A stretch of DNA of 64,000 bases from Candidatus Enterousia sp. (lineage in GTDB: Bacteria; Pseudomonadota; Alphaproteobacteria; Rs-D84). A program made the position numbers and the translations under genes. The notes beneath the pieces are model-generated. The model was not told the origin of the DNA, ran no database searches, and saw nothing but the letters and a program-made list of their open reading frames with translations. Location: NCBI GenBank assembly GCA_045649345.1, contig JAZRPS010000018.1, positions 2,280-66,279 on the forward strand, read 5' to 3'. Below, one piece after another: positions 6,213 through 61,465 of this stretch (position 1 is the first letter of the stretch; each line of letters opens with the position of its first letter).

Positions 6213-6214
6213 AG

Positions 6215-13090: not shown

Positions 13091-13116
13091 AAAATCCCCC
13101 AACGGGGGATTTTTTA
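13088..13116 (-). terminator. terminator AAAATCCCCC-aac-GGGGGATTTT after the 428-aa gene
   Basis: Same stem family as 6991..7012. It lies directly downstream of the stop at 13114. Confidence 0.75.
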
Positions 13117-21590: not shown

Positions 21591-21652
21591 AACCCCTTCC
21601 TTTTAGCATGCAAAAAGAACAAATAGATACAGATAAATTGCACTATTTAGTT

Positions 21653-30800: not shown

Positions 30801-32004
30801 GGTCTGGACATTCTTCTTTCTGCCCACCAGTACAATAATAACCACCATCGCATATCGTCTGACCGGTACATCTGGTACCATTATTGGTACATGTTGTACC
30901 ACCCGTCGCGTAATACCCACTTGACGTATTTGAACACGCCGATGCACCAGCCGCCGAATATTTATAACCCGTACATTCATACATTCCGCTATTCGCATTT
31001 GGATTATGGCCATACGTTCCTCCCGGGCAACGATACCCGGCAACACATGTTGCACATGTTGTTGCACCACGTGGCAAATACGTCCCAGCCGAACAAGGGT
31101 ATGACTTTGCCGACCAACACGCATACAGTGTTGTATCTGCATACACGCGTGGATCGTTCGCATAGTATCCATTCGCATTAATTATCTGCGTACCACTGCA
31201 CCCAGGACTTTTATAATAACCACCAAAATCATCCCCTGTCTTTACCGGTATTGTAATTGGGTTTGCAGACGAAACCATCTTTTTGGCATACGCCGAATCT
31301 AAATACATTCCATTACCATAGATATAGTATAAACTGGCAGTTCCCTGGGTATCACAACCCTGGCAATCCAGGCTGATTCCTGGTTTTGCCTTTATCACAG
31401 GGTATAATGTATACGACGTCGCAGTACTTATATTCGTAAATGTCACAGCCGTTGAACTAGAGCTAGAACCATAGGTAGAATTCGCCATAGTCGATGCCCA
31501 ACCACCAACTTCGTACCACTTGCTATCAAAGGTCAAACCACTGGATGCCGGCAATGTAAACGCCGTGTTATAATAAACCTGAATCGTTAAATCACCACTG
31601 GACCATGCAATTGTCCCGCCCGTCACAGGATTCAAAACATTCAGCGTGCCGGTTGCAGAACTGTTCCCACCATTATACTTACGACTGATGACAACATTAC
31701 GATAACATTGATTGCGCGCGGTTTTACCGGCACCACCCGTCGTCCAAATATTGCTGGAATTGGCGGTTGTTGAACCACTGTCACAATCATGTGGCGCAGT
31801 ATATGTTCCCCCAGGGCAATAAGAACCAACAGGACAAATCACACACGAATTTCCAACACCCGTACCACTAAGATAATAGCCGGCATTACATGACGTATAC
31901 TGCTTATACGACGGACACGTATACCCCGCACCAAACGCATCAACGACAAAAAATGAAACGAACAAAATCGCGCAAAGACGCAGAAATCCTGAAAATCTTC
32001 CCAC
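24814..32004 (-). CDS. giant (2,396 aa) cysteine-rich secreted mosaic protein, adhesin-like
   Basis: Uninterrupted ORF. GTG start preceded by agaggaag. Signal MGRFSGFLRLCAILFVSFFVVDAFGA. Recurrent CP.G.YCPGG motif, NGG...GY.F.GW repeats, and four ~130-aa internal modules. Confidence 0.9.
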   Translation of the reverse strand: MGRFSGFLRLCAILFVSFFVVDAFGAGYTCPSYKQYTSCNAGYYLSGTGVGNSCVICPVGSYCPGGTYTAPHDCDSGSTTANSSNIWTTGGAGKTARNQCYRNVVISRKYNGGNSSATGTLNVLNPVTGGTIAWSSGDLTIQVYYNTAFTLPASSGLTFDSKWYEVGGWASTMANSTYGSSSSSTAVTFTNISTATSYTLYPVIKAKPGISLDCQGCDTQGTASLYYIYGNGMYLDSAYAKKMVSSANPITIPVKTGDDFGGYYKSPGCSGTQIINANGYYANDPRVYADTTLYACWSAKSYPCSAGTYLPRGATTCATCVAGYRCPGGTYGHNPNANSGMYECTGYKYSAAGASACSNTSSGYYATGGTTCTNNGTRCTGQTICDGGYYCTGGQKEECPDPKSAVRTAAFPAAYNANNSTGVTISLSNVILGSSSLSQRTGQSAVTGCQALFFWKPNGAPAGLYEYVTYNEETGKYEETSASDSAWAYYYVTPGYQLTTPANNGVCYGGQRYYKAVQKCPINYYCNHTGNMSCTDGETYTDALPSTRCVYLPNTAGFYYGTDGVGASKPEQCFGLAVPGFTVLTPYAEPEDCPVGSYCPGGEYPEGGYGADEKIYYGQVSATATECPAGFTSDITASTLSSCYCTTVLDKNGLSGTIFGATGTNNATRKLNYGVTITLPRASTLSAENATFTGYWSPDKPMPHSAYSLAKVPNQMTSIKVGDEGCPARLYAVKKGVDMTVDFNIGVSGCELPTMECYANSGECILPEISCSKAGYVFAGWMNTGDDCDGGYLGNVFQPGDDVSIVGGGCESPYAIEFTAQWIENGVTCAPGYYAKKGETTCNNKCGYGYYCPGGGGTTAGGDFGRHSCSDWFTFETTTDKSHLNIGSASNTSSQKTQCYVESYSGYRLIFLGYTDDGVAGLTTDLSPANYSFYSDRFYYGAQKVVLSSAMTCADDLGSDRFVYSEPGSQGACYAQIVLDKNGGSGTINGVSGTDSAVQRVYYDMGDNKFPATTSLSSSIYNFTNQWGTDTGCERATYTPGTDYYFYDGDSVPEKLYACRTAKKFSCEAGTYLPMGKTTCDICLAGSYCPGVQNVTYNESKDGGIYSCPEHFTSDPGATSDNTMGLEDENVCYINLSPGYAVSVDQANGSVTVDACDSEIIMRDAILYGMDVGAYYCPGGDKIKYQGPGLTGVEECPDSFVDAQSAISSRGQCAFKLQPGDSIDGCDFTFVNTVGSCAGGDMSYFCPGYTVTIDEVAKENDPITWCVTNKYLGYYTCPVNSTTSADQTHCTCNYGYQVSDGAATITNATQKCVPVSVTVPAGSYLPAGSLTPAECGAGGSYCPGATCSFSATMDCGREACPDPADENYAPRENVDWVDSAKLPDERKNTSVVSVVTLNTWSKNLQSINQCRVTYTIQNDAGTMLLEGIYYDSDSEQYTDDRALIPYYAQLNPGYYLHTPYTATYCTTGNANGMYYQFAEKCPQNSYCPGLKSMPKCGAADSVRTQFGYTSFTYGDDLGAATCAWGTNGKYVYSDVGAESKDLCYLNTSGGYAVYEQGAGQVMCQAGQFCIGGTTVYYGKQSGSDMTGGFEYCSPKYPESAPGNSEWGLCYVTLKPGEYVAAQGTGAAPCPADDYCPGDEKIYTFVSDGGSDEQPEHGGNYPCPDPYLDNTALGKELVRQCLMDVPGGYYVAESGATQYVATDPGYYQPTSHSVGYGETSVDVLGYEYIACSGQDKYQDLTAQTSCNTVSWGYYTTKNGAECTDGVACTGQAGCDGGYYCTAQTGIRKACPDARTHRRTTQFTSTNSNLIMPTVTLDMLEELTNTSVTSRTLVGDITGCQVLSWYTAKPVDQGGKASLYEYAMYVGDEENGEYSNTTAWGYMSVQPGYYLSSPVACGAYAYYHVLNECESGQYCPGKDKVACDSSNQATVHTSTFGMEICPTNYGASPARATAQNQCYLTTTAGTYVAEPNAAPVTCPGGYYCPATDIYWGATGGNNACPAANDDTRMTTFPASWYPVWQDGHAPDNANMINVRDFKQQLWTKGLGSIGLCRAQYFITNAAGDTNIESVRFNENTGDYDIGGDQYYATLNPGFYFKTRYSDWYCKNGGTYMYYRTAVQCPEGSYCPGYASNSLIPKCSSGEYLEEMGINSCSSLIVQEETGYYPYSPVGSSQATQCYLTTKPGEAVYSTEYPEACPGGAYCPGGVNVNYGSNGGFYSCAALTENGFYSGSYRGADDESECYGVLEEGYYIDTPYSEEQKQCAAGTYWEASIVYYGKTTTCPACTNAPENAVYTTVGWNGGLDCPWECNDGYNQTVDANGNPMCGQMCTVPGMNYIKSSTGLSIPLYSSKGAGWARAIGVSLDGGQTACYGRLEQDTGNAPSGSLRVNVGGTKYYAVE

Positions 32005-33234: not shown

Positions 33235-34041
33235 CTACATCACCTTACCCTGGGTTGGATAAAAAGTTAACTGTATTTTTTTCCATTTGTCAAATTCATT
33301 TGCCGGCAACATGCGTAATGGCTGACATGTATTAATCGCCGCACGTATCGTATCCAAGACATACGCAAACGCAGGATCGGTTTCTGCACGTGATTCTGAT
33401 TCAAACCAAACATCTTGAACCGTGCCATTTTTTCGCATCGTCAGATGTGCCACTGCGCGGATATCTGAAATATCTGGACGCGCGCTATCAATCACCCAAC
33501 AGCGTGTCATCGCAACACGCAGCGCATCAACAACAGATATAGTCAATGTTCTGTCCAGGGATAAAACCTCGCGATTGACGCGCACAACTTTCTTTTTCTT
33601 GGGCGCAATGGGCGCATCCTCAACAGGTTTTGATGCTTCTTTTGATTCTTCTTTCTTTGGCTCTGGCTTTTCTTCTGTTTTTTCCTCAACCTTTTCTTCT
33701 GGTTCTGGCTTCGGCTCTTCAACCAATGTTGGCGCCTCTATCTCCACCTTTTCGGGTTCTTCTGCCTTTACTTCCTTGACATCGGGTTTTGCGACCGGGG
33801 CAGGGGTCGATTCTTCCTCTTTCTGTTCTGCAACCTGACCAACATTATAAAGTTTGGTTTCATCCCCCGACACAACAACCTGATTTAAATCAATTTCAAT
33901 AATCTCAATCCTGTCTGGTGTCACCAAGCGCGCACGATTAACAACAATCGCGAACGATGTAATCATAATCGCAACCAACGCCAAATGCCCACCAACAGAC
34001 ATTAACAGATTTTCTGATGAAAAATGATTTAACTTTGCCAT
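33235..34041 (-). CDS. tolA: TolA-like envelope protein
   Basis: N-terminal TM, a Glu/Lys/Pro-rich linker (EEKVEEKTEEKPEPKKEE), and a TonB/TolA-type C-terminal domain. It follows tolQ-tolR. Confidence 0.8.
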   Translation of the reverse strand: MAKLNHFSSENLLMSVGGHLALVAIMITSFAIVVNRARLVTPDRIEIIEIDLNQVVVSGDETKLYNVGQVAEQKEEESTPAPVAKPDVKEVKAEEPEKVEIEAPTLVEEPKPEPEEKVEEKTEEKPEPKKEESKEASKPVEDAPIAPKKKKVVRVNREVLSLDRTLTISVVDALRVAMTRCWVIDSARPDISDIRAVAHLTMRKNGTVQDVWFESESRAETDPAFAYVLDTIRAAINTCQPLRMLPANEFDKWKKIQLTFYPTQGKVM

Positions 34042-37552: not shown

Positions 37553-38476
37553 ATGTTAAAACCTATTTTTATGACTTTTTTCGCTATTTTCTGTGCATAT
37601 TCTGCATACGCCATGGACGACACATTTTATGAAGAATTCCAGACAATATACACCGAAACACCGGTACAGTCTTACTATGCATACCCAGACGATCCAAATT
37701 TTATTCCAGAATCAGAATTTATGGAACGCGCGGACAGCCTGGATTATGATCAAAACATAATTGCTGCACGCGACATTGAAATGCAAATGCACCCGGGGGT
37801 AATGTTTGCCGACAAACCAATGGTCATATGTCGTAATTTTGGTTGTACACGCCTGAACGACCGCATAACACGCACATTTTTATTCAACAGTTTGGCAAAC
37901 ATGTTCATGATGAACGCCCATTCACGCGTTTATATATGCGAGGCAGACCCATTCTCACGCGATTGTTTACAATCCGGAATATCATTCCCTGTACGCAGTG
38001 GCATTGCCAATGCAATGGTTAAAATTCCAAAGGCAACAATATCCCAGGTTAATGTTTCTACTGGATTATCCAAGGCAACCGTTGGCATGACATACGAATT
38101 CTTGGTAAACGGCATCGACAGACGATGCGAACCAACCGTTATGGACATTATGGTCCCAATTAATTCCCAAGCAACACTGTCCAACCGCGAATTTGCCTGC
38201 AATATGACCAGCGACGGTTTCAGCAACGTATCATTGATGGTCAGCATTGACTACATCGACCTGGACTATGGTATTTTGGGCGGTTATTATTCCTTGGGAA
38301 TGCAGGGACCAACCACCGGTGGTGGCACGGGTTATGCACTATTTAAGACAGAATTTGCAACATCAGGTATGCAATTTCGTGCCGCGGTATACGATGAAGA
38401 AGATATGCAGGGTGTAAATAACGCCATGCGCACAATTCAACCCGGCGAATATGCCGTTGAACCATTAAATAAATAG
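37553..38476 (+). CDS. hypothetical secreted protein, first gene of a two-component operon
   Basis: Signal MLKPIFMTFFAIFCAYSAYA. Only 3 nt separate it from the response regulator gene. Confidence 0.75.
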   Translation: MLKPIFMTFFAIFCAYSAYAMDDTFYEEFQTIYTETPVQSYYAYPDDPNFIPESEFMERADSLDYDQNIIAARDIEMQMHPGVMFADKPMVICRNFGCTRLNDRITRTFLFNSLANMFMMNAHSRVYICEADPFSRDCLQSGISFPVRSGIANAMVKIPKATISQVNVSTGLSKATVGMTYEFLVNGIDRRCEPTVMDIMVPINSQATLSNREFACNMTSDGFSNVSLMVSIDYIDLDYGILGGYYSLGMQGPTTGGGTGYALFKTEFATSGMQFRAAVYDEEDMQGVNNAMRTIQPGEYAVEPLNK

Positions 38477-42121: not shown

Positions 42122-42150
42122 ACAAAAATGCCCCAATCGGGGCATTTTTT
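42122..42150. terminator. bidirectional terminator between argS and the 261-aa gene
   Basis: aaaaatgcccc-aatc-ggggcattttt. Confidence 0.8.
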
Positions 42151-42934
42151 ACATTTCGCGTTGCATATCATTTATGGTCACCATTCTCGGTCTGCCATCC
42201 TTGTCCCATATACGTATTCTTCGAACGCGATTTTGCCCGTCTCTAAATCCCTGGACAATGGTATCACGCCCTTGCTCTGGCAATTTTTCCTTATCGAACA
42301 TATATTTTTGGCCTTGAAACATAAAACCAATGCAATTCCCGTCCTTGTCCCAATACTGCACAATATCTGCATAACTGCTTTTCGCTTCGCCCCGCCCATT
42401 GGGTATTGGCTTGGTCACCATGGTATGACATCTGTATGCACAGGAATATGCAATACCATTAAAAGGCGGATTATGCTCTATTACGTCCTCTTTTGAATAA
42501 TTTTTTCTAAATGTTTCCAGTTTTCGTTTCGGCAAAAATCCTGTTAAGTAAGACACGACTCTTTCTGCCCATGAATCATTCACCGTCATCTGTCCCCCTA
42601 ATTCCCGGTCGCGCTCTGGCAAATTTTCCTTATCGAACATATATTGTTGACCTTTATAACCAAAGCCTATTGGATTACCATCTTTATCCCAATAACGTTC
42701 AAAATCAAAAAAACCACCGCGCCCTTCTGACATTGAAAGATGCATAAAATCTTTGCCTATATACGCAATGCCGTCTTGTGGCGGATTAATTTCTATAACC
42801 TCAAGTTTTCGAGGTACAATTTTTTCTTTTATTCCTTTTCTAAACTCTTCCAGATTTTCTTTTGGGCTTTTATACATAAAATCCACAAAGATTTTATCTG
42901 CACCACTATTATCAATTATTCTAGTTGTCATCAT
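42149..42934 (-). CDS. hypothetical protein with internal ~115-aa duplication
   Basis: Two copies of IE.NPP.(D/N)GIAY ... YWDKDGN.IGF...GQ.YMFDKE.LPE. ATGA overlap with the J-domain gene. Confidence 0.75.
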   Translation of the reverse strand: MMTTRIIDNSGADKIFVDFMYKSPKENLEEFRKGIKEKIVPRKLEVIEINPPQDGIAYIGKDFMHLSMSEGRGGFFDFERYWDKDGNPIGFGYKGQQYMFDKENLPERDRELGGQMTVNDSWAERVVSYLTGFLPKRKLETFRKNYSKEDVIEHNPPFNGIAYSCAYRCHTMVTKPIPNGRGEAKSSYADIVQYWDKDGNCIGFMFQGQKYMFDKEKLPEQGRDTIVQGFRDGQNRVRRIRIWDKDGRPRMVTINDMQREM

Positions 42935-43638: not shown

Positions 43639-44559
43639 TTAATCACGTTCTTTGGTTGGGGCAGGGGTCGCTAGCACCTTTTTATCTTTGACCTTTTCCT
43701 TAACGCGCTCACCCGCCCGGTCAAAAATATTTTGATATTCTTCATTGCCTTGCTGGACATTGGACACAGGCTTGCCATCTACATAGTCCACCGATGAAAT
43801 AACTTTGCCGTCTTGATAAACCATTTGATTCAAAATTCGTCCCACATCGTCATAAGAAGTCATAGTTTTTGGATTGTTATCTTTATCCTTGCGCAGGATT
43901 GACGCAACGCGCCCCGTGGGGTGATAATTAACCTCGTCAAATTCATGCAGTTGCACCGACAACAACAAATTTCCACTTTCATCCATTTGTTCAATTGACG
44001 ACACAAAAGATTCTGCCACATATGTTTCTTCCCGGTCTGTGCCACGCAAAGAATTTTCCAAGCTATCCGCATTACCGCGCCCTGTATTCCGTGTTCTTTG
44101 TTGATATGTGGTATGTGTCGCAATATGACCATTGTCATAGTAAGTTGTCTTGTCCGTCGTCATCCACTTGCCACTGCCTGGGCTTCGCAAACCAAATTTA
44201 TCCCGTATTCTTACCTTGTGCACAGACGACAACATACGCCCATTTTCACCATATTGAATTTCGTTCATTCCAATTATTGCAGAGTCAAAAAAACGTCCGT
44301 TCTCTTCATACTTTATGATACTGGAAATATATCCGTCCTTGAAATTCACAACATCATTGTCCTTCAAGATTTGCGAAACTGTTACACGTCCTTCTTTATC
44401 ATACTGGGTAATAACACGGTACCCACTATGTTCTTCCATGATAGTTATAATGTTTCCTTCTTTATCTTTTGTTACTGTTTTTCCAACTGTCCCATCAGCC
44501 ATTCTCTCTGCAATTCCAGCAATCGCTGCATTTATCGCGTCCAATCCTGCATCTGCCAT
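43639..44559 (-). CDS. YD/MORN-like beta-hairpin repeat protein
   Basis: About nine Y-[DE]-x-x-G-[RN] units (QYDKEGRV, KYEENGRF, QYGENGRM, SYDDVGRI and others). Confidence 0.75.
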   Translation of the reverse strand: MADAGLDAINAAIAGIAERMADGTVGKTVTKDKEGNIITIMEEHSGYRVITQYDKEGRVTVSQILKDNDVVNFKDGYISSIIKYEENGRFFDSAIIGMNEIQYGENGRMLSSVHKVRIRDKFGLRSPGSGKWMTTDKTTYYDNGHIATHTTYQQRTRNTGRGNADSLENSLRGTDREETYVAESFVSSIEQMDESGNLLLSVQLHEFDEVNYHPTGRVASILRKDKDNNPKTMTSYDDVGRILNQMVYQDGKVISSVDYVDGKPVSNVQQGNEEYQNIFDRAGERVKEKVKDKKVLATPAPTKERD

Positions 44560-47251: not shown

Positions 47252-48058
47252 ATGACTACACAAAAATACAATCCAAAATACTGGCTATATGAACTAATCA
47301 AAAACCTGGCCCCGGAAACCCAGAGTTGTATTATCAAACATGGCGCACATCAACACAATTTAGACCGCAAAACCACCGCGTCCAATCAGCAACTAACACA
47401 AACCGAAGTTCATGATATATTGGCATATCTGATACACATATACACAAAATATTATTTACCAGAACAACGAAAATCACCACACTGGCAAGACATAATTGAC
47501 GAACAAAAATACAAACAAATTCCACGCAGATACCATGGCATATATCGACCGCTGGGCGTTGGGAAATACTGCATCAAGAAATCATTCTATAATGTATGCA
47601 AAACAAATTGGTACCATACCCCAAATGCCAGCGTACTGGCAAACCCAGGTACAGACAAAAACAAATTAAAAAAATTGATAACACAACTACATCCATATAC
47701 CAGTGTCTTTTATGAATACGATTTCGAAAAAATACGCGAAATTCTGGTTCAATTAATTGATATGACACATGTACTGCATGTTCCAACCCCACAAACAGAA
47801 TATGGCGCATTTGGCTGTATAACAGTTATACCAAAAGACCCTACATATCATGAATATATCACGGAACAAGCAACACGAAACAGCAAACTACGCGCATTAA
47901 AAGAACTACAAGGCATACGCGACTCAAACAAACACTTAATTAGCCTTGAAGACGAACGACACAAACACAACAAAAAAATGCTGGCCAACGAATTTGAAAA
48001 TAGAAAATCTAAATTTTTCAAAAAGGCACGCTCTCCTTTCTCAATAAAAACCCGTTAA
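47252..48058 (+). CDS. hypothetical protein (268 aa, basic, no signal peptide)
   Basis: Long ORF with an aaggaattacat RBS. It ends 12 nt before thyA. No recognisable domain. Confidence 0.7.
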   Translation: MTTQKYNPKYWLYELIKNLAPETQSCIIKHGAHQHNLDRKTTASNQQLTQTEVHDILAYLIHIYTKYYLPEQRKSPHWQDIIDEQKYKQIPRRYHGIYRPLGVGKYCIKKSFYNVCKTNWYHTPNASVLANPGTDKNKLKKLITQLHPYTSVFYEYDFEKIREILVQLIDMTHVLHVPTPQTEYGAFGCITVIPKDPTYHEYITEQATRNSKLRALKELQGIRDSNKHLISLEDERHKHNKKMLANEFENRKSKFFKKARSPFSIKTR

Positions 48059-49458: not shown

Positions 49459-51693
49459 TTACATTGGTGGGAAACATTCGTCTGTCCCATCTGCACAACA
49501 CAAACCATCAACAAATGTTTCACCAGCACAGCAACCATTCATATCAGGTGCATTACCATCAGAACAAACTTCCTGTTCCACATCATCTGCATCTATCGCA
49601 CCAACAACCACTGGTTCTGAATAATCAACCACAGGCGCATCAACGACAACCGCTTCTTCAACAGTATCCACCGCATCTGTTTCATATTCTTCATCTGCGA
49701 CAAACATTTTTTCTTGTTGCGAAACATTATAAACAGGTTTCGATGCGATTATTTCTGCCACAGATTTTGTTTCAGCAGGTGCGACAACCTCGTCTGACAA
49801 GAATGGCGAATCTGATATATCTTCAACCTCATCATTAATCACCACTTCTTCTGGCGTATCTGTCACAACCGGCACCACAACAGGCTCAACATCTGGGAAT
49901 ACAGCGGCATTAATATCAACCACATCATCTGCATCTTCTTGCACCACAACAGATTCTGATGACTGCTGTTCCATCTGGGGTTGTTCCGTCGTTTCAACCA
50001 CATCTTCACCATCTGCAACAATATCAACTGTGTCTATATCTGATTTTTCTTCGGTCGCGTCATCAACAATAAACGGCGACACATCATCTGTTGCTTCCTT
50101 TTCTGGCACAACATCTTCTTTTTGCTCTTCTTCTGCCACCACTGTGCTTGGCACTTCCTCTACTGCTTCAACCTTAGCATCCAGGGCAGGGACATTCATA
50201 TCAGGGGTCGATTTTTGATAAAACCACAACGTAAACACAGACAAAATAATCAGCACCACCAACAACAAATAATACAATTTCGTCGGTTTGCGACGGGTTG
50301 CACCAACAGCTGAAACCGCCCCAGTAATTGGCGACACAGGACGCGCGTCTGGCACAGTTGGCGCGGGTTCAATTTCTGGCATCGGTGTCGGTGCCGACTC
50401 TTCAACAATTTCCTGAACTGTTGGTTCTGTATATTCAGGCACAGGCTCAACAGGGAACACAGGCTCCGAATAAACCGGTGCTTCTGTCTTTGTCACAACA
50501 GATGTCTCAGACGGGACATCTGGAATATCTGTAAATCCAGGAATATCAACCGTTGCCATTAATTCAGAATCAATATGTTCAGACTGCTGGGACGGCACAG
50601 ACGTCAACGAATTTAGCACTGGTGCCGTGTCTTCCACCGGAATACCATCAGATGCACGAACAGGCGGCGCAAACGACAGTGGCTGAACAGCACCCTTCGT
50701 TTCAATATCAATGTCATCATGTGCAACAGGCGCAGGTTTAACCTCATCACCAGACGTTGCACCAAAATCAATTGGTTTAAACGCTATATTTTCATCCAAG
50801 ATTTCTGGATCTTCATCAAATAATGGTTTTACTTCTTCATCGGCCATATCATCTGCCTTTGTTTGTATGGTTAAATCTGTAAATTGTGGTGACGACGTCA
50901 TTGGCACAGACGGATCCTTGACCACCGCAACATCTGTTGTTGCCGGCATCGCAGGCAATTCATAATCTGTACCGTCATTCATCGCCACAAAATCATCCAA
51001 CGTTTCCAAGATGTCACGCGCGACATCCGCATCTTCTTCGGCTGCAACCAATCTGCGTTGCGCACTAACCAAGCGCTTTTTAGAACGCGCCATCTTTTCA
51101 TTTATTGCATCAATTTGCGCCTCTGTCTTTAATATCTTAGACGCCGATTGTTTTGTTGGTTCTTTACCAACCTTTTTACGTTGCGCCGTTAATTTGGAAC
51201 GCAAGTCCTTTAATTTTTCCTGCTGTTCCGCAATCGTTTGCTTGGTCTTTTCGATTGTTTCGCGCGCGTTCCCGGCGGTTATTTCCGCCACCCCCAGACG
51301 TTCAAACGCGGCACGACGCGACGCATCATTTCTGAATATCTCCAACTGCTTTAACGCACCGGCAACATCTTTGTCATCATCGTATGCGCGAAACAGGTTG
51401 TCATAAACCCCCAGTCCTGTATACTCTATATCCAGTTTTTGATATTTATTGTCCTTTTTTGGACGAACACTTTCCAAATCGACATCATAATCATTGACCA
51501 GAATATCATCCCATTTGCGATTCCCAACAGGATTCGTCACCAACAAAACATTCGGTTTAGTATCGCTAGTCGCAAAATCCAAGACGCAAACCAACTTTCC
51601 ATCTGCATCATAATACGCGCGCATATAGCCGCCAGAAATATCATATTCGACAATTTTCAAAGCACCGTTAAAATTCTCTCTCTCGTTCGGCAT
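49459..51693 (-). CDS. large bitopic protein: N-terminal domain + coiled coil + TM + long acidic region + C-terminal Cys cluster
   Basis: ATG at 51693 is best spaced from the ggggag RBS. TM LYYLLLVVLIILSVFTLWFY. D/E/V-rich region. The protein ends CSDGNAPDMNGCCAGETFVDGLCCADGTDECFPPM. Confidence 0.8.
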   Translation of the reverse strand: MPNERENFNGALKIVEYDISGGYMRAYYDADGKLVCVLDFATSDTKPNVLLVTNPVGNRKWDDILVNDYDVDLESVRPKKDNKYQKLDIEYTGLGVYDNLFRAYDDDKDVAGALKQLEIFRNDASRRAAFERLGVAEITAGNARETIEKTKQTIAEQQEKLKDLRSKLTAQRKKVGKEPTKQSASKILKTEAQIDAINEKMARSKKRLVSAQRRLVAAEEDADVARDILETLDDFVAMNDGTDYELPAMPATTDVAVVKDPSVPMTSSPQFTDLTIQTKADDMADEEVKPLFDEDPEILDENIAFKPIDFGATSGDEVKPAPVAHDDIDIETKGAVQPLSFAPPVRASDGIPVEDTAPVLNSLTSVPSQQSEHIDSELMATVDIPGFTDIPDVPSETSVVTKTEAPVYSEPVFPVEPVPEYTEPTVQEIVEESAPTPMPEIEPAPTVPDARPVSPITGAVSAVGATRRKPTKLYYLLLVVLIILSVFTLWFYQKSTPDMNVPALDAKVEAVEEVPSTVVAEEEQKEDVVPEKEATDDVSPFIVDDATEEKSDIDTVDIVADGEDVVETTEQPQMEQQSSESVVVQEDADDVVDINAAVFPDVEPVVVPVVTDTPEEVVINDEVEDISDSPFLSDEVVAPAETKSVAEIIASKPVYNVSQQEKMFVADEEYETDAVDTVEEAVVVDAPVVDYSEPVVVGAIDADDVEQEVCSDGNAPDMNGCCAGETFVDGLCCADGTDECFPPM

Positions 51694-51714
51694 ACGCATA
51701 CTCCCCAATTGTTT

Positions 51715-52323
51715 TTATTTCTTTTTTGGTGGCGCGAACTGATAAGCCTGCTTACAATGCTCATAACAATACGGTTTGCCCACAAAAACCGTTTCGCCAC
51801 AAAAATGGAAATGTTCAGAATCAGGATCGCCGATCGGCCACCGACACTGATTTGGTTTTAAACTTGCCATTTCCAAGGAATGCTGAATAATCCGCTGATG
51901 CATTGCCAAGTTTTTCGCACTTGTTTTCGCCGACACTGTCTTGCATTCTGTATTCTTTGGCGTCGCAATTTTCTTTTCAATCGGCGCCTTTTTTGCAACA
52001 ACAGATTTCTTTGGCTCAGCTTTTTTTGTCACCACCTTCTTTGCAGCTGGTTTTTTTGCTGCGACAACTGCCGTCTTCTTTGCAACCGTTTTTTTTGCCA
52101 CCGCCTCTTTCACAGACGTTTTTTTCGTTGCAGTATTCTTTTCTTTCAACGGTTCTGCCTTGGCTGCGCCACCTGCCTTGGCATTCCAGCCCAGACGATT
52201 CAGTTTACCAACAATGGCATTTTTTGACATTCCCAAACGCTTGCCAATCTCAGCTGTCGACAACCCCTTGCCAGTCAAAGCCTTTAACTTTTTTAACGCG
52301 ACACTATCCCAACCCTTGCTCAT
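51715..52323 (-). CDS. gcrA: cell-cycle transcriptional regulator GcrA
   Basis: N-terminus W..V.LKKLKAL...GLSTAEIGKRLG.SKNAIVGKLNRLGW. C-terminus CRWPIGDPDSEHFHFCG...PYCYEHCKQAYQ. Lys/Ala-rich linker. Confidence 0.9.
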   Translation of the reverse strand: MSKGWDSVALKKLKALTGKGLSTAEIGKRLGMSKNAIVGKLNRLGWNAKAGGAAKAEPLKEKNTATKKTSVKEAVAKKTVAKKTAVVAAKKPAAKKVVTKKAEPKKSVVAKKAPIEKKIATPKNTECKTVSAKTSAKNLAMHQRIIQHSLEMASLKPNQCRWPIGDPDSEHFHFCGETVFVGKPYCYEHCKQAYQFAPPKKK

Positions 52324-52394
52324 TTTACAAAACCCTTGTTATACATTATGATATTAGTGTAGCATATATTCGATTCGAAAGGCAAGGGGGAAAA

Positions 52395-52865
52395 ATGTTT
52401 TTACAAATATTTTTCATTTTTTTAATTCTGGGTGCAATTTGTCTGGCAACAAAGATTTCAATTGCAGATTTTAAGCGTCGCATCATACCAGATGCATATT
52501 TATTTCCACTGATGCTGATTGGCCTGATTTTAATTGTATTTTTCAGATTTCCAACAAGCATTGCTGACGCAGTTATTGGTGCCACGTCTGGTTATTTACT
52601 GGCGACATTTGTCGGATTCATATTTGATTACTATATGCACAAAAACAACGACACAATTACCCCACCAATTGGCATGGGCGACATAAAGCTAATTGGGGTC
52701 GGTGGATTATGGCTGGGGACAACAGGATTGGCAATTTCATTAATTATTGCATGCATATCCGGTGCAGTTTGGGCATATTGTCGACACGAAAAATACATCC
52801 CTTTTGCACCATTCTTTTTACTTGGTGGATTTTTATCTTTGATTACAATTCACATTTTGTTATAA
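52395..52865 (+). CDS. A24-family prepilin peptidase (CpaA/TadV-like, no methyltransferase domain)
   Basis: 156 aa and polytopic. IADFKRRIIPD and GMGDIKL carry the two catalytic Asp motifs. RBS aaggggg. Confidence 0.85.
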   Translation: MFLQIFFIFLILGAICLATKISIADFKRRIIPDAYLFPLMLIGLILIVFFRFPTSIADAVIGATSGYLLATFVGFIFDYYMHKNNDTITPPIGMGDIKLIGVGGLWLGTTGLAISLIIACISGAVWAYCRHEKYIPFAPFFLLGGFLSLITIHILL

Positions 52866-52888
52866 TACACACATACAAGGGAACAGGA

Positions 52889-53764
52889 ATGAGAGTAAAT
52901 TCATCTATATTCTTTGCAATATCTGCATTAATTTTGACGTCTGCATATGCGGCGGGCCCCGTTCCATTTTCGCAATATGGCGTAATTCAGAACGTACAAA
53001 ACTATTCAACAAACCCATATTGGGACGCAAACGGTCCATACAATCAACGCCTGCCACAGCCTGTTTATGTCCAAGGCGTTCAGATAGAAACTGCCGAATG
53101 TCAACAGGTTGTTGCCGGTCTGGTTGCAACCCAATGTGCCATGCGCAACAATTGTCGCGACGCACGGCTTAGTGATATTCGCCCCGGCGTAATGTTGCAA
53201 CTGTCACAAATCCCCAGTGGGAATTATGCAACGGCATGTGCCGGCTATATCGACAGTGCATTTGATAACTATGTAAAACAATATGGTTATGCAATGCCAA
53301 CCGGCGTTGAACAGTTTCCTGACGCCATTGTTGAGGAGCCTGCACCCCAAATTGAATTTCAAAATCCATACAAGAAATCTGCCCCAGATTGGGCGACTGA
53401 GATGATGGAACGCAAACAAGAACTATTAGATTTACAGGCACAAAATGGCGCAAATCAAATCGAATTAACCAAAACAGAATTTCCAACCATATTTGCAGAC
53501 CTGTCATTCCAAGATCGTATGAACAACCTGGCGACTGGTTATGAACCGTACAAGGACAAAAAGGCATACATTCCAATCAAGGTTGAAGACAAGGCGTCAT
53601 ATCTGGAACGCAGAAAAAAGATTGAAGAACTGGAACAACAGCGCGCCTGTTTAAACAAAAAAACAGAATTTGACAAAATGATTGTCGCATTAAACGCAAT
53701 ACGTAAATGTCGCGCAAACAAAACACCAAAATCAAAATGTGACGGAATCAAAGATTATTTATGA
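52889..53764 (+). CDS. hypothetical secreted protein (operon gene 2)
   Basis: Signal MRVNSSIFFAISALILTSAYA. Several Cys residues. Coiled-coil C-terminal half. Confidence 0.75.
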   Translation: MRVNSSIFFAISALILTSAYAAGPVPFSQYGVIQNVQNYSTNPYWDANGPYNQRLPQPVYVQGVQIETAECQQVVAGLVATQCAMRNNCRDARLSDIRPGVMLQLSQIPSGNYATACAGYIDSAFDNYVKQYGYAMPTGVEQFPDAIVEEPAPQIEFQNPYKKSAPDWATEMMERKQELLDLQAQNGANQIELTKTEFPTIFADLSFQDRMNNLATGYEPYKDKKAYIPIKVEDKASYLERRKKIEELEQQRACLNKKTEFDKMIVALNAIRKCRANKTPKSKCDGIKDYL

Positions 53765-54288
53765 CAAAACGTTTCATTTGTTATTTCATGACTTTTCTTG
53801 CCGGGGCAACATGCACCAAGGTTTCGTTTGCATCAAACACCGTTGCAAATACAGCAAACACTGTTGCAAACGTTGCCAGCACTGTCGCGAATACTGCAAA
53901 CACCATTGCAAATACAGCGAACGCTATCACAAACACTGCAAATACCGCAACACCACAATATGTATTGGTTCAGCCTGCGACAACAAATTCACAAACCGCG
54001 ACACAAACTGCTGCGGAACCATCAATGCTGAGTGTAAACGACGAATACACCGACATTGTCAAAAAAATTGATGCCGAAATGGATGTGATTATGGCAGAAT
54101 GTTCATCACTGGGGCTAAAAAAACCAGAATTCTTGACTGGCACCCAACAACAAAATACGGGTCAACAATCCAACGCCGGAACCAATGGACAATCATCTTC
54201 TGGCGGTGGTGACAGTTCATCGTCAGGTGGCGAAACACCTGGTGGGGATTCAACAACCAACAACGACGAAATTGTATTTTACCTATGA
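53761..54288 (+). CDS. hypothetical secreted protein with N-T-V-A-N-T-A heptad repeats and Gly/Ser-rich tail (operon gene 3)
   Basis: ATGA overlap with the previous gene. Signal-like MTKRFICYFMTFLAGATC. 21-bp repeats at 53836..53949. Confidence 0.75.
   Translation: MTKRFICYFMTFLAGATCTKVSFASNTVANTANTVANVASTVANTANTIANTANAITNTANTATPQYVLVQPATTNSQTATQTAAEPSMLSVNDEYTDIVKKIDAEMDVIMAECSSLGLKKPEFLTGTQQQNTGQQSNAGTNGQSSSGGGDSSSSGGETPGGDSTTNNDEIVFYL
53836..53949 (+). repeat. imperfect 21-bp tandem repeat, about 5.4 units, in frame
   Basis: Encodes NTVANTA NTVANVA STVANTA NTIANTA NAITNTA NTA. Confidence 0.85.
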
Positions 54289-55340
54289 CCATGAAAACGA
54301 TAACACGATTTTTATCAACATTTTTCTTATTTTGCGCCATTGTCACAAACGCCAATGCCGATGCCATGACCGATTGCATGGCAACAATTGGCGCCAACCA
54401 AGAGACATTTATTAAACCACTTAGTACAGAAATTTTTCCAAACACCACTAAACTAGAAGAAAGTATAGTTAAGAAAAATCGTGCAAAAATCCTAACATTA
54501 ATCGCTGGAAATATTTTTACACAATGCAATAAACAGCTTGCTGAACTACAATCCGCACAAAAAGGCAAATTATCATTTGTATTAAACAATCAAAAATATG
54601 CATTTGTATTTAATCCCAAAGACGTTTTTGAATTTTTAGACCTGCGCACAGGAATAATGGTTTATAACAATCGTACCAGGACAGCAGGCGACGTTATACA
54701 AGTTGGCGATATAAAAAAATTATATTGGTCTGACGAATGTTCTGACCACACAATATGGGACAATCTGGATGACGATGCCGCCGTTAATAAAGCCGGACAA
54801 AAATCATTCGCATCATACGGCGGTTCTGACAATGAATACTTCCTTGATTTCGAAGAAGGAAACAACCGTCGCGCATTCCCAGGTCTGGTTTTAATGGACG
54901 AAACAAGTTCAACAACCGAAAAAATCGTCACATTTACAGATTTGACATCCGCCATTGATGCCGCACAAAGATTTCAATCTGCATTAAAAAATTCTGCATG
55001 CAGTTCCCAGGGATTGGCAGTCTATGTGGTTGGACTAGATGTAAAAAAAGACAACACCAACAAAGACGGTTGGGCATTAGGCGCATCGATTGGCGGTGGC
55101 GTAATGGCATTCGCAGGTCTTGCCACCGCATTATCCGCATCAACAATTGTTGCGGCTACAGGCAGCATGGCATTAGTAAACGCAACACTTGCTGTTGCTG
55201 GGGCTGCATCCACTGTCCCTGTTGCCGGGTGGATTGTTGCCGGGGTCGCCGTTGCAGCGGTTGGCGTCATTTCCCTTGTTCCCGGAACGATAGAAGAACT
55301 AAACCAAGTAATGGTTATCGCAGGACCATATAATATATGA
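54285..55340 (+). CDS. hypothetical exported protein with ~75-aa Gly/Ala-rich hydrophobic C-terminus (operon gene 4)
   Basis: ATGA overlap with the previous gene. Signal ..FLSTFFLFCAIVTNANA. C-terminus GWALGASIGGGVMAFAGLATAL...VAGWIVAGVAVAAVGVISLV. Confidence 0.75.
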   Translation: MTMKTITRFLSTFFLFCAIVTNANADAMTDCMATIGANQETFIKPLSTEIFPNTTKLEESIVKKNRAKILTLIAGNIFTQCNKQLAELQSAQKGKLSFVLNNQKYAFVFNPKDVFEFLDLRTGIMVYNNRTRTAGDVIQVGDIKKLYWSDECSDHTIWDNLDDDAAVNKAGQKSFASYGGSDNEYFLDFEEGNNRRAFPGLVLMDETSSTTEKIVTFTDLTSAIDAAQRFQSALKNSACSSQGLAVYVVGLDVKKDNTNKDGWALGASIGGGVMAFAGLATALSASTIVAATGSMALVNATLAVAGAASTVPVAGWIVAGVAVAAVGVISLVPGTIEELNQVMVIAGPYNI

Positions 55341-55349
55341 TATTAAGAA

Positions 55350-57155
55350 ATGAAAAAACTTATATTCATTTTTATCGCTTTATTTTCTATCTCAGCGTTT
55401 GCAAATACAGACGTGACGGCGACACCCGTCACCGCAACAGCGTCTGAGGCAGCATCACTTGTCGGCGACGGCACAACACCGGACGGGTACGATGACGCAA
55501 TGACCGTCGATGATATTTTATATACACCACCATCACAAACAGAATGTGCAACGAAAATATTTGCAGATGCACTGGCACAAAACGCAAACAGTGTAAAAGA
55601 AAGCGATCCAGAACATATCGTACAAACATGGATTCAGCAAACATTATCCCAGGGTGATGTATTAACAAAAGTTTTAACATGCCCAGAAATTACCAGCATT
55701 GCCGAAGATGAAACAATTAAATTCCAACCAATTCAATACACCTTTCCAGGCGGTCGTGAAATCGTCGTAAACTATGAAACACAACCAAAGGTTTTAAAAC
55801 AACGCCTGACACTGGCAACGAAACGCGGTTTGCCGTCCAATGACCCAAATCCACGCGTTGGCAGTATCGACGACACCGCCGTTTGGACAAATACAGACCC
55901 GGCATGGTATGCAATTATGGTGACCGAACACGGCGCACTGGACAATTTTGTTGGCCCCGATAAAAATAATACGATCTCGCTTGAATACATTAACGATCAT
56001 ATTGATGAACTATACCCAACTGCCATGTTTAACGGTGGAAACTGCACCAGTCGCAGTGCTCTGGCAGGCGATACAAACATGATTAATCGCGCTGTCACAA
56101 AAACAGTAAACATGAAAGAAACAACCGGCGAAGATGACACAAATGACTATTATGTCGCCGGCGATGTCAGCCTGCGATGGATTTCATATCTGGAAATCGC
56201 ACTTGATATTGTTATCACAGTCGTCACATTGGGTGGCGGAACCATTATTACCGGCGCCACCAAGGCGGCACGCGCATCCAAAGCGTTAAAGGGTATGAAA
56301 ACCACCCTGAATACACTAAAAACATCTGATAAGGTTATCGATTTTATCAAAACCACCCAACGTATCGATAAAATAACAGACGAAATAAAAGCATTGGACA
56401 AGGTTGCAGACGCAGCAAAAATCCTTGACAAAACCAAAGAATTGGACGCATTAAAAGATAATCTAAAAGCGCTTGATAATATTGACGACGTAAAAAAGTA
56501 TAAAGAAACCGTTGACACATATAAAAAATTAAACGCCTATCGACGCAGTCTGCGCCTGATGCGTCCGGCACAACGTGGCAATATTATCGCACGCGCAGTA
56601 CGTGCCGGCAAATCTGCGTGGTCTGGCAACAAATTAATTTCAAAGGGCGCAAAACTGGGACGCAGTGGCAAATTTTCTGGTCGTATTCGTGATTGGCTAT
56701 TTCAATCAACAATGCGAAATGCAGGTCGCCTTGGCAAGCTAGAGGCCACCGGCGGTATAATATACACCGCAACAAAAATCGCAGGCGACATGTACGATTG
56801 GACCGACACCAGCACTGGCGAATTTACCAGTGGGGTTGAATTCTCGCCATTGTTGCTGTTATCTGCCGACGATATAAAAGGGCAAGAAAATGTCATCAAT
56901 CACGGTATGTGGTTAATGTGGGTTGGCGACACACTAAACGCCGCCGATGATGATGCCGCATATTTACAGGCAATGGATTTTGCAGCCAAGGTTCACGAAG
57001 ACATAATGGAATTACAATCAGATTCAAACAGCCCCTGCAATATCGACATCTTTATTGTACGCCCAATTTTGCGTGACCCTGGGTCTGACACCGCCGCACT
57101 ATATTACTTGGTTATGACAGATACGCCATGGACAACCGCCGAACCAAACAAGTAA
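55350..57155 (+). CDS. hypothetical 601-aa protein: signal peptide, central TM, Lys-rich coiled coil, basic region (operon gene 5)
   Basis: Signal MKKLIFIFIALFSISAFA. TM WISYLEIALDIVITVVTLGGGTIITGA. Then KALD/KELD-type coiled coil. Confidence 0.78.
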   Translation: MKKLIFIFIALFSISAFANTDVTATPVTATASEAASLVGDGTTPDGYDDAMTVDDILYTPPSQTECATKIFADALAQNANSVKESDPEHIVQTWIQQTLSQGDVLTKVLTCPEITSIAEDETIKFQPIQYTFPGGREIVVNYETQPKVLKQRLTLATKRGLPSNDPNPRVGSIDDTAVWTNTDPAWYAIMVTEHGALDNFVGPDKNNTISLEYINDHIDELYPTAMFNGGNCTSRSALAGDTNMINRAVTKTVNMKETTGEDDTNDYYVAGDVSLRWISYLEIALDIVITVVTLGGGTIITGATKAARASKALKGMKTTLNTLKTSDKVIDFIKTTQRIDKITDEIKALDKVADAAKILDKTKELDALKDNLKALDNIDDVKKYKETVDTYKKLNAYRRSLRLMRPAQRGNIIARAVRAGKSAWSGNKLISKGAKLGRSGKFSGRIRDWLFQSTMRNAGRLGKLEATGGIIYTATKIAGDMYDWTDTSTGEFTSGVEFSPLLLLSADDIKGQENVINHGMWLMWVGDTLNAADDDAAYLQAMDFAAKVHEDIMELQSDSNSPCNIDIFIVRPILRDPGSDTAALYYLVMTDTPWTTAEPNK

Positions 57156-57397
57156 ATAAAATGAAATTTGCGCATCTGTCTTTTTTTATCGCTTTTGATG
57201 ATACAACTATCACTGCTGCAAAAATTATCAAGGCAACAATAGAAAATTCTTAAAGGGTTGGATGCGCGGCATAAAACTGTATCGAAAAAACGGTTGCCAT
57301 TATCCGACACAACAACCATTGAAACGCGAATAATTATTCCTGTTGTATTTTTTCTGATATTTATTTATAATCAATACATAAAAGTAAGGAGGCAATA

Positions 57398-57715
57398 ATG
57401 AAAAAACTATTATCTGCATTGCTTATCGTTATCTCAGCAATTTATACCGCCGATGCGTATCAGGTTTTATCGTCCAAAGAACTGGGCAAAAACGACGCAA
57501 AGAACCAAAATATTGTTGTAAAATGCACAACCGATACCGGCAAATTATCAAATCAAACATGTTCACTGCGCCGATATGCAAAATGCACAGGCACAGGTAA
57601 TAAAAAACGTTGCAACGGCTGGCAACCATGGCGCGACCTGCGCAATCCGTCGAAACAGTATTCTGATTGGAAAACCGCGGCATCCGCATGCTGTCGTGCC
57701 AAGGGATTAAGATAA
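57398..57715 (+). CDS. small basic cysteine-rich secreted protein (105 aa)
   Basis: Strong RBS taaggagg. Signal MKKLLSALLIVISAIYTADA. Mature part is rich in Cys, Lys and Arg. Confidence 0.75.
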   Translation: MKKLLSALLIVISAIYTADAYQVLSSKELGKNDAKNQNIVVKCTTDTGKLSNQTCSLRRYAKCTGTGNKKRCNGWQPWRDLRNPSKQYSDWKTAASACCRAKGLR

Positions 57716-59754: not shown

Positions 59755-60741
59755 TTATAACAAACGTTTTGTTTCTGCCCAAAAATCAACAGAATCAGTA
59801 TTTAACCAATACAAAACCCCCAGCGCACTTATCACCGGCATAACAGTTATCAGCCCAAACAACCCCAACATCACTGCAAACATTTTATCTGCAATTGCGA
59901 CATTCAATTGCTTTACATGCCAAACAGACAACGCAGTCAACGCACAAATTGCAACCAATGTACCCAACAGAACGGGTACTGCCTCTGTCAAAACAAATAA
60001 TGCAGCCCCAAGCAGACAGACCACACGTCCCAGCCACTTTAATTTTACATATGCACTACGATGAACTTTGCCACACGCCTTAACATTTCGTACTGCAATC
60101 ACAATTGCGGCGCATACCCCCAATAATAACACAGCCAACAGATGCACAATCGTCAGATTGCCCAACTGACCAAATCTGAAAAATTCGGGCTGCATCAAAA
60201 TCGCAGTTGTTGTCATTAATACTATCAAGACAACACCCGGGATTACACGCATTTCTGACTTTGCACGACGCCCCAGAATCACGCCCAACGCCAGCGCACC
60301 AATCTGCAACAACGGCCCCCACCAGGCATGCGTATCCGACAACCCAACCATTGCAACAACAGACAGCACAAACACCCATTTTCGCCAGTCCATACAGGGC
60401 AGGGGGCGTGAACGCAAGTGCGACGAAACAAACAACGCAGACAAAAATATTATAACAGCCACCATCATCGGCAGCACAGACAAACTGTCACGCAAAACGT
60501 TATAATTACCGCCGAATAATACTATCCACGCAAACGTTAACACAACCGTCCACAATGATACCTGTTGCAATATATTATTGCGCGTCCAGCCCAATTTATT
60601 TAACAGCACACCAGAACACCAATAGATTACAATAAACAACGGCGTTGCCAACATACCCCACCATAAAAACGCAGGCGCCCATAATGCTGCATTATTAAAT
60701 GCACTAACCGCACTTTGCACAACAACGATATCATCAAACAT
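59755..60741 (-). CDS. polytopic inner-membrane protein, unknown function
   Basis: About 9 hydrophobic segments. ATG at 60741 follows aaaggcaag. The longer GTG start at 60789 would overlap the divergent gene. Confidence 0.7.
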   Translation of the reverse strand: MFDDIVVVQSAVSAFNNAALWAPAFLWWGMLATPLFIVIYWCSGVLLNKLGWTRNNILQQVSLWTVVLTFAWIVLFGGNYNVLRDSLSVLPMMVAVIIFLSALFVSSHLRSRPLPCMDWRKWVFVLSVVAMVGLSDTHAWWGPLLQIGALALGVILGRRAKSEMRVIPGVVLIVLMTTTAILMQPEFFRFGQLGNLTIVHLLAVLLLGVCAAIVIAVRNVKACGKVHRSAYVKLKWLGRVVCLLGAALFVLTEAVPVLLGTLVAICALTALSVWHVKQLNVAIADKMFAVMLGLFGLITVMPVISALGVLYWLNTDSVDFWAETKRLL

Positions 60742-60781
60742 AAACTTGCCTTTTACTTTTATTGTTTTATTATAAAGGGAT

Positions 60782-61465
60782 ATGAACACAAAACAAGAAA
60801 TTTTTACCCTGATGGGCGGTCGTGTAAAAATACAACGCGGACATTATAATCCTACATCTGACGCTGTATGGCTGGCAGCCTTTGCACCCAATAACGCAAA
60901 AACTGTACTGGATGTCGGTGTTGGTACAGGCGGCGTATCTTTATGTTATCTGGCAAACAATCCATCTGCCAAAATAACAGGCATCGACACATCTGTTGAT
61001 ATGTTACGCGAATGCGAACAAAACGCTATACTAAACAACGCAACAATTGAAACAATCGAACAAGACATTACCACATGGCGCACAAATCGCACTTTTGACT
61101 TGGTTTTAACCAACCCACCTTATTTTAATGGTACACCTGCAAAACATAATGCCCATCATAATGCAGATTTACGCACATGGATTTCACGCTGTATCGCACG
61201 TGTACGCCCAATGGGGACATTCTGCATAATTACAGATGCAACAACAATTGCGCTGGTTATATCTGCGATGTCGCACAAATTAGGCGACATAACAATATTC
61301 CCACTTTTTGGTGCAAAAAACACCGCGGAACGCGTTCTTATATCCGGCAAACTGGGTACCAAGGGCATATCAATATTGCACAACGGATTATCGATGAATT
61401 ATGAGCCTGTTTTGCGCAACGGCTTGACTATTGCGGATACTTTGTCTACACTATCACAGAAATGA
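60782..61465 (+). CDS. class I SAM-dependent N6-adenine-type methyltransferase (NPPY motif; TrmN6/YfiC-like)
   Basis: VLDVGVGTGGVSL and DLVLTNPPYF motifs. Confidence 0.8.
   Translation: MNTKQEIFTLMGGRVKIQRGHYNPTSDAVWLAAFAPNNAKTVLDVGVGTGGVSLCYLANNPSAKITGIDTSVDMLRECEQNAILNNATIETIEQDITTWRTNRTFDLVLTNPPYFNGTPAKHNAHHNADLRTWISRCIARVRPMGTFCIITDATTIALVISAMSHKLGDITIFPLFGAKNTAERVLISGKLGTKGISILHNGLSMNYEPVLRNGLTIADTLSTLSQK

Follow-up and report, generated by a model that had tools for sequence, protein, structure and literature searches.

A conserved gene block led by an A24 prepilin-type peptidase, with a swappable slot among its Sec-signal proteins, in gut Alphaproteobacteria of the order Rs-D84

What does a prepilin-type peptidase do at the head of an operon that encodes no pilin? 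The question is raised by a locus of Candidatus Enterousia sp. (assembly GCA_045649345.1, contig JAZRPS010000018.1), contained in a stretch of 64,000 nucleotides which was analysed as a whole and is called here the window; coordinates are counted from its first letter. To our knowledge, pilin maturation is the only known job of a prepilin-type protease. As a whole, the locus is an A24-led operon of Sec-signal proteins with one swappable slot, a gene system that is new and is known from genes alone; it is rated as new because its architecture is not known to have been described and only the peptidase and an optional muramidase have known relatives. Tentatively, and with appreciable doubt, the block is taken for an envelope assembly particular to this lineage, with the A24 peptidase taking part in its biogenesis. 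The features concerned are the following.

49459-51708, minus strand: up749, an open reading frame (ORF) of 749 amino acids (aa) directly downstream of gcrA.
51715-52323, minus strand: gcrA, alphaproteobacterial cell-cycle regulator, divergent from the operon (PF07750 GcrA found on its orthologues in the related loci L001-L004).
52324-52394, no strand assigned: divergent promoter and leader, 71 nt (promoter scan and comparison of 65 species).
52395-52865, plus strand: g1, A24 aspartyl peptidase, 156 aa (PF01478, E=2.9e-14).
52889-53764, plus strand: g2, predicted Sec-exported protein, 23-nt gap after g1, preceded by a Shine-Dalgarno sequence.
53761-54288, plus strand: g3, predicted secreted low-complexity protein of 175 aa, ATGA overlap with g2.
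54285-55340, plus strand: g4, MC-type occupant of the variable middle slot (see below), ATGA overlap with g3.
55350-57155, plus strand: g5, core protein of 601 aa, 9-nt gap after g4.
57208-57327, plus strand: 3' relic of a deleted GH108 muramidase gene (tblastn).
57398-57715, plus strand: g6, predicted secreted basic protein of 105 aa with six Cys, continuing the operon past g5.

An earlier note on this DNA had given the gaps from g1 to g5 as 23, -4 (ATGA), -4 (ATGA) and 9 nt and had set the operon divergent from gcrA, and the coordinates of the ORF list agree on both counts. It had also ended the operon at 57155, which is too early, the operon continuing to g6. Overlaps between the stop codon of one gene and the start codon of the next occur in the window operon and likewise in L001. 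Metatranscriptome contigs of at least 90% identity cover g2, g3 and g5, plus the g3/g4 and g4/g5 junctions, and RNA contigs across gene junctions fit polycistronic RNA. That g2 to g5 are real genes and not chance ORFs follows from this coverage, from the homologues of g5 (more than 771) and g4 (132), and from the presence of g2 and g5 in nearly all of 84 related loci.

These 84 loci, each taken ±10 kb around g5, were searched by tblastn with the window proteins as queries, and 81 were left after removing duplicates. Essentially every locus with enough flank displays the same order: up749 and gcrA on one strand and, divergently, A24, g2, an interval of 1.0-1.9 kb, g5, an optional GH108 gene and g6. 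Raw matches among the 84 loci amount to 77 for A24, 81 for g2 and 79 for g6, with the misses at contig ends; among the non-duplicate loci, g2 is matched in 78/81, g6 in 76/81 and up749 in 71/81, always adjoining gcrA, which itself was found in 72 loci at 59-86% identity. By median identity to the window, g6 ranks first in the block (78%), above gcrA (65%); A24 (59%) is as conserved as g5 (57%), followed by g2 (47%) and up749 (45%). The outer flanks vary, with thyA and lpxB in the window, an M48 peptidase and a radical-SAM gene in L001, and enolase and RNase H/dxs in L004. Since they change between species while the inner order holds, the block itself is the conserved unit. As to whether the A24 gene always travels with the four genes behind it, a point raised by the earlier note, the answer is divided: g2 and g5 follow A24 in every locus with enough flank, and the neighbourhood is therefore conserved in relatives, whereas g3 and g4 are interchangeable. 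A prophage origin was rejected on account of zero PHROG matches and the fixed chromosomal position across the order.

Relatives of g5 were found in 253 GTDB species genomes (one genome scanned per species), labelled as Ca. Enterousia, Alphaproteobacteria or 'Rickettsiales' metagenome-assembled genomes (MAGs), with ruminants, horses, chickens, humans and termites as hosts; one of these genomes is a closed MAG of 958,618 bp. Ca. Enterousia belongs to the order Rs-D84, gut Alphaproteobacteria with genomes of 0.75-1.0 Mb that are widespread in ruminants, horses, chickens and humans; flagella, the tricarboxylic acid cycle, respiration and many biosynthetic pathways are missing, and a partner-dependent lifestyle is suspected (PMC12306168).

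The most divergent copy of the block lies in a termite-gut 'Rickettsiales' MAG (L045, 2151-7853), where A24 is 41% identical, the gcrA-A24 spacer measures 196 nt and g6 is inverted; this copy keeps the GANTC element described below, g2, an MA-type middle gene and g5. Concerning up749, its N-terminal half is a coiled coil, followed by a single central transmembrane (TM) helix, an acidic and Pro-rich C-terminal half and a Cys-rich end (CC...CC...C). No Pfam or PHROG family matches it and, being co-conserved with the block, it may belong to the same system.

As the earlier note had read from the letters, g1 is an A24 enzyme of 156 aa with both Asp motifs intact: it matches PF01478 over residues 15-127 (53.8 bits vs. 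a cut-off of 26.5), and 73 orthologues, without exception, keep the catalytic D25 (ADFKRRIIPD) and D96 (GMGDIKL). It is a short TadV/CpaA-type enzyme without the methyltransferase domain. More than 650 homologues exist, the top matches being all 58-99% identical and 153-160 aa long; a word-based homologue search returned in-clade orthologues only, and a phmmer/profile search of PDB sequences gave nothing significant.

A canonical substrate was sought in the window and within ±10 kb in 80 relatives. Six-frame scans for Flp, type IV pilin and generic class III signals yielded spurious matches only, in both sets; these were out-of-frame, very short or at internal ORF positions, and none had a pilin-like leader. 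T2SSE, T2SSF and Secretin domains are absent from the real window ORFs of at least 150 aa and from the called genes of L001-L004, and neither PF04964 (Flp) nor PF07811 (TadE) matches any operon protein. The signal peptides of the operon proteins end in AxA sites of the standard Sec type. The scans thus uphold, for the 64-kb window, the absence of a Flp or type IV pilin gene, a secretion ATPase and a secretin noted earlier, as well as the description of the downstream N-termini as ordinary Sec signals without a pilin cleavage motif.

The peptidase could work on Flp, type IV or competence pilins whose genes lie elsewhere in the genome, its operon position reflecting shared regulation or a frozen gene order and the downstream proteins forming an unrelated envelope module. 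We hold this to be somewhat unlikely. The enzyme does resemble a standard short A24 peptidase, its orthologues are annotated as prepilin peptidase by NCBI and JGI, the downstream proteins bear Sec and not class III signals, and the scans covered the window and local flanks only. Also, bacteria with reduced genomes and a dependence on partners often retain type IV pili, which counts for pilins lying elsewhere. Yet neither pilins nor pilus machinery turned up in the window or within ±10 kb in the 80 relatives, and the 23-nt spacing, together with an order-wide linkage that stays unbroken amid reshuffled outer flanks, argues for a functional tie. In a survey of Rs-D84, type IV pilus and competence genes are mentioned for a different lineage only, UBA9783 (PMC12306168). 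The link between the peptidase and its operon is drawn from that order-wide linkage, the invariant catalytic residues and the lack of canonical substrates nearby.

As for g2, it is laid out as an N-terminal domain with four invariant Cys (C71, C83, C89 and C117) followed by a C-terminal helical module of about 100 aa. An iterative search with the last ~125 residues of g2 located this module at the N-terminus of the GH108 + PG_binding_3 muramidase encoded after g5, and GH108 proteins of this kind are present in 25-30 related loci. Full-length g2-GH108 fusions occur in six species (L031, L040, L041, L047, L054 and L069), in which the fused g2 is a second full paralogue located downstream of g5. 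In about ten loci (L004, L008, L009, L033, L037, L053, L056, L058, L066 and L083), g2 is fused in frame with a middle protein; these fusions sit at ~7.7-10.0 kb of each locus, and in L004 and L037 the middle part is of type MD (see below). The stoichiometric envelope complex that the earlier note had suggested would fit such natural gene fusions. A strict 'NDEY...C' helix motif was also tried as a universal docking element and was rejected, being present in few proteins only; it is the broader g2 C-module that recurs. No match to g2 was obtained in Pfam, NCBIfam or PHROGs, nor in the PDB sequence and profile searches.

In 24/75 loci an intact GH108 (+PG_binding_3) gene stands between g5 and g6, and in 51/75 that position lacks it; in relatives, its domains are recognised at E=3.4e-9 (PF05838) and E=6.5e-5 (PF09374). 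The window operon has no intact Glyco_hydro_108 + PG_binding_3 gene, only a 40-codon 3' relic, which matches the C-terminal 40 aa of the GH108 protein from L001 (55% identity, E=2.8e-10). Deletion of the gene explains the 242-nt gap ahead of g6, and it was recent in the window's lineage, since the close relative L005 retains the gene.

The interval between g2 and g5 is the variable part of the block. Its ORFs were grouped by BLAST into four clusters, MA, MB, MC and MD. MA, with a Ser/Thr-rich linker, a Gly-zipper and a Cys-rich domain, is found in ~36-43 loci, MB in ~15-17 and MC, the family of g4, in about 11-15 of ~80 loci, while MD has four free-standing genes, or about ten if those fused to g2 are included. 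The four types are intermingled throughout a neighbour-joining tree of g5, which implies many replacements, and whole genes are replaced rather than C-terminal tips. The window carries MC, and its nearest relatives carry MA (L005) or MC plus MB (L006). The earlier view of g3 and g4 as fixed operon partners is accordingly abandoned, as four families alternate in that slot. MD is a clear paralogue of g5 (hhalign 99.9% with g5 residues 185-591); between g4 and g5 the probability is 40% over ~70 columns of the N-domains, which is suggestive. A single superfamily for all the middle proteins was considered and rejected: only MD is clearly related to g5, MA and MB not being significant by hhalign.

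In the window, g3 and g4 share the slot. In L006, the corresponding position is taken by a 138-aa ORF, 60% identical to g3 over 105 aa, and g3 shares a module of ~55-110 aa with the N-terminus of the MB-type protein of L006; it is not found in the other loci. From these resemblances g3 appears as a lineage-restricted accessory or a split piece of the variable slot. Its scans against Pfam, NCBIfam and PHROGs gave sub-threshold noise only. The Gly/Ala-rich hydrophobic tail of g4, pointed out in the earlier note, is confirmed by sequence analysis. In the AlphaFold2 (AF2) model of g4 (predicted local distance difference test, pLDDT, 82; predicted template modelling score 0.78; residues 281-329 of low confidence), the Gly/Ala-rich hydrophobic segment (~265-335) is inserted in a globular domain and the last strand (341-350) rejoins the fold, an arrangement that would fit a helical-hairpin membrane anchor. 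Foldseek of this confident model gave no match in PDB or BFVD, and g4 has no match in Pfam, NCBIfam, PHROGs or the PDB sequence and profile searches. Pfam searches with representatives of the other middle families showed nothing but a weak Gly-zipper match, Gly-zipper_YMGG in an MA-type relative (E=0.01, 16.0 bits vs. a cut-off of 28.9, hence below threshold). A weak compositional match to the hydrophobic region of VasX was also seen (E=0.19).

The order of parts in g5 is a signal peptide, an N-domain (~62-275), a 23-residue hydrophobic helix ending in GGG (within 277-303), a Lys-rich coiled coil (~305-395), a basic stretch (396-465), a short second hydrophobic stretch and an acidic C-domain (~495-601), in keeping with the signal peptide, central TM, Lys-rich coiled coil and basic segment recognised at first reading. 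Ninety-six columns are invariant, including C66, C111 and C232 in the N-domain and C563 in the C-domain, which also bears a DDDAA motif. The positive-inside rule would place the coiled coil and the basic region in the cytoplasm and leave the two end domains extracytoplasmic. A shared A24 site ahead of the second hydrophobic stretch (...KLEATG-GIIY in g5) was examined as a candidate and is not claimed, since MB and MD do not keep it. All the homologues of g5, at 53-95% identity, come from uncultured Alphaproteobacteria of gut metagenomes, and an exhaustive HMMER search of its profile against 1.84 billion representative proteins returned 140 clusters, all of them family members or MD paralogues. 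No match was obtained in Pfam, NCBIfam, PHROGs or the PDB sequence and profile searches, and Foldseek against PDB gave coiled-coil noise only.

In g6, the signal peptide is variable and the mature part is 83% identical on average; conservation sets in right behind the predicted AxA cleavage site, and the six Cys and a C-terminal CCRxxGLR are invariant. It has no match in Pfam, PHROGs or the PDB sequence and profile searches. As a whole, g2, g4, g5 and g6 are lineage-restricted families without known relatives, and the earlier statement that the four proteins downstream of the peptidase match nothing recognised holds for Pfam, NCBIfam, PHROGs and PDB, and for Foldseek on the g4 and g5 models.

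The gcrA-A24 intergenic region, of 71-73 nt, is better conserved than any protein of the block in the 65 species compared. The promoter scan located a sigma70-like promoter (TTTACA-17-TATGAT) at 52324-52352. A GANTC site (GATTC, 52372-52376) within the palindrome CGAWTCG is kept in 65/65 species; the leader contains a strong Shine-Dalgarno sequence, AAGGGGGA, and its final ~30 nt are nearly identical across the same species. No Rfam family matches the conserved leader. In Caulobacter, GANTC sites are methylated by CcrM and are typical of promoters that depend on GcrA. An invariant GANTC-bearing region shared with gcrA suggests that both divergent operons are under cell-cycle control of the CcrM/GcrA type, a reasonable hypothesis drawn from the conserved motif.

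This regulation would also suit a housekeeping module for envelope or peptidoglycan remodelling, possibly division-related or polar, timed by GcrA and methylation, with the peptidase minor or incidental. Such a module would account for the fixed linkage to gcrA with the GANTC-bearing promoter region in 65/65 species, for the GH108 + PG_binding_3 muramidase in or near the operon and for the strong conservation of g6, g5 and A24; an M23 peptidase, a LysM protein and lpxA/lpxB also lie nearby. We consider it quite improbable, however, as repeated subunit swapping among four unrelated families is not expected of it, the muramidase is dispensable (absent from its position in the 51 loci mentioned above), and none of the proteins resembles a known divisome, elongasome or Tol-Pal component.

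It is very improbable that the exported proteins attack membranes as effectors or toxins, in the manner of Gly-zipper or helical-hairpin pore formers, and are directed against competitors or a partner, with the slot as an arms-race cassette and g6/g2 as accessory or protective proteins: Gly-zipper-rich hydrophobic hairpins inserted in soluble-looking domains, the VasX and Gly-zipper_YMGG matches, rapid cassette turnover and an associated muramidase speak for it, but those matches are not significant, g5 has the same architecture and is highly conserved, and there is no toxin domain, no nearby secretion system for delivery and no adjacent immunity-like small gene varying with the cassette.

For the envelope assembly favoured here, we infer a membrane topology, complex formation, a peptidase-substrate link, cell-cycle control and a biological role along the following lines. 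Transcription would start from the near-invariant GANTC promoter region shared with gcrA, with cell-cycle timing. The proteins g2, one interchangeable middle protein (here g4 together with the small g3), g5 and g6 would be Sec-exported and would fold as disulfide-bonded extracytoplasmic domains, with Gly-rich hydrophobic helices holding the middle protein and g5 in the membrane. A GH108 muramidase with its g2-type docking module may open the peptidoglycan locally, a component lost in the window's lineage. The A24 peptidase would be the processing enzyme and would act, on the cytoplasmic side of the membrane, on a substrate other than a pilin. Swapping of the middle subunit suggests that its role is an exposed one, towards a partner or towards phages, for example in attachment.

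Several points weigh against this assembly as drawn. No A24 site (Gly at -1 ahead of a hydrophobic N-terminal helix, Glu at +5, or G/xxxxEY) was found in any operon protein, and the candidate internal Gly-Gly site of g5, which precedes a short hydrophobic stretch, is not conserved across MB/MD. A conserved operon position alone is no proof of a protease-substrate relation. In genomes of ~0.9 Mb, the search for pilin and Tad genes covered the 64-kb window and ±10 kb of 80 relatives only. The AF2 model of g5 is mediocre (pLDDT 59.5, confident only at 60-160 and 530-600), and the topology was derived from hydrophobicity and the positive-inside rule alone. Finally, the RNA contigs are assembled and come from related strains, and DNA carry-over is possible.

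A bolder form of the same reading, in which an A24 (GXGD) peptidase has been recruited order-wide for a non-pilin, Gly-zipper-anchored, novel-fold partner-contact apparatus with one swappable subunit and without a PilB/TadA-type ATPase, is plainly unlikely as it stands; if true, it would define a new class of A24-dependent surface structure. Short of this, a block of ~8 kb, or ~1% of the genome, present in every sampled species is a prime candidate for the envelope or contact machinery of the lineage. Should the peptidase act on the operon proteins, the substrate range of bacterial A24/GXGD enzymes would extend past class III signal peptides. Moreover, the swapped middle gene offers a natural handle on specificity or an arms race, and the invariant GANTC promoter beside gcrA a simple case in which to study how the cell cycle is controlled in a minimal alphaproteobacterium.

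The remaining window is core chromosome, with dnaK, dnaE, secA, ruvB, argS, tig, thyA, lpxA/B and ribosomal proteins. A 2396-aa ORF at 24814-32004 (minus strand) has no Pfam match at E<=0.001 and is notable for a genome of ~1 Mb. Other family-less ORFs, of 250-810 aa, lie at 273-1271, 1380-2474, 4930-5706, 6110-6988, 13114-14400 and 14416-16851 and, further on, at 33235-34041, 37553-38476, 42149-42934, 47252-48058 and 59755-60789. The 306-aa ORF at 43639-44559 (minus strand) has a weak RHS-repeat match (E=0.0011, 19.8 bits vs. a cut-off of 22, sub-threshold). In a relative (GCA_017463185.1, L001/L002), a Cas9 gene with HNH, RuvC_III and Cas9_RuvC domains was found ~9 kb downstream of the operon (20670-21671), from which it appears that some of these very small genomes retain type II CRISPR (clustered regularly interspaced short palindromic repeats).

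Compared with known systems, the block differs from polymorphic toxins and contact-dependent inhibition, as no toxin or immunity family is matched and no secretion system lies nearby. With Gly-zipper proteins (SlyB/Pcp, the Rickettsia 17-kDa antigen, YMGG, and CdzC/CdzD of Caulobacter) it shares the GxxxG hydrophobic hairpins of g4, MA, MB and MD; however, g4 has no Pfam match, and the operon proteins are far bigger, have sequences that are not those of lipoproteins and carry globular domains that are novel. With peptidoglycan hydrolases dedicated to trans-envelope machines (VirB1, EtgA, FlgJ and the GH108/PG_binding_3 'secretion activator' proteins) it has in common a GH108 + PG_binding_3 enzyme, encoded inside the operon in 24/75 loci and tied to it by the g2 module and by fusions, although the enzyme is often missing from the operon, is a relic in the window and would serve a machine that is hypothetical. 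Type IV pili, type II secretion and Com systems are set apart by the absence of a G/FTLIE pilin, PilB/GspE and PilC/GspF in the window and its local flanks.

The closest relatives of the peptidase itself are to be sought among TadV, CpaA and FppA, the short A24 prepilin peptidases of Tad (Flp) pili, which lack the N-methyltransferase domain. The size (~140-170 aa), PF01478, the two Asp in DxxxxxIPD and GxGD, and the alphaproteobacterial host are alike. Unlike them, g1 does not adjoin flp/pilA, cpaB-F or tadA-G and heads an operon of Sec-signal proteins instead; neither a Flp pilin or TadE/F pseudopilin motif (in the window or ±10 kb of 80 relatives) nor, locally, a TadA/CpaF ATPase, a TadB/C platform or an RcpA/CpaC secretin accompanies it. 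A second comparison is with archaeal PibD and the Sulfolobus bindosome, in which an A24 peptidase matures non-pilus, sugar-binding envelope proteins into a surface assembly. The substrates of the bindosome have class III signals and need a PilB/PilC-like ATPase and platform, whereas here the signals are of Sec type and neither component is nearby. Even so, the bindosome sets a precedent for non-pilus A24 substrates and is the nearest conceptual parallel to the block.

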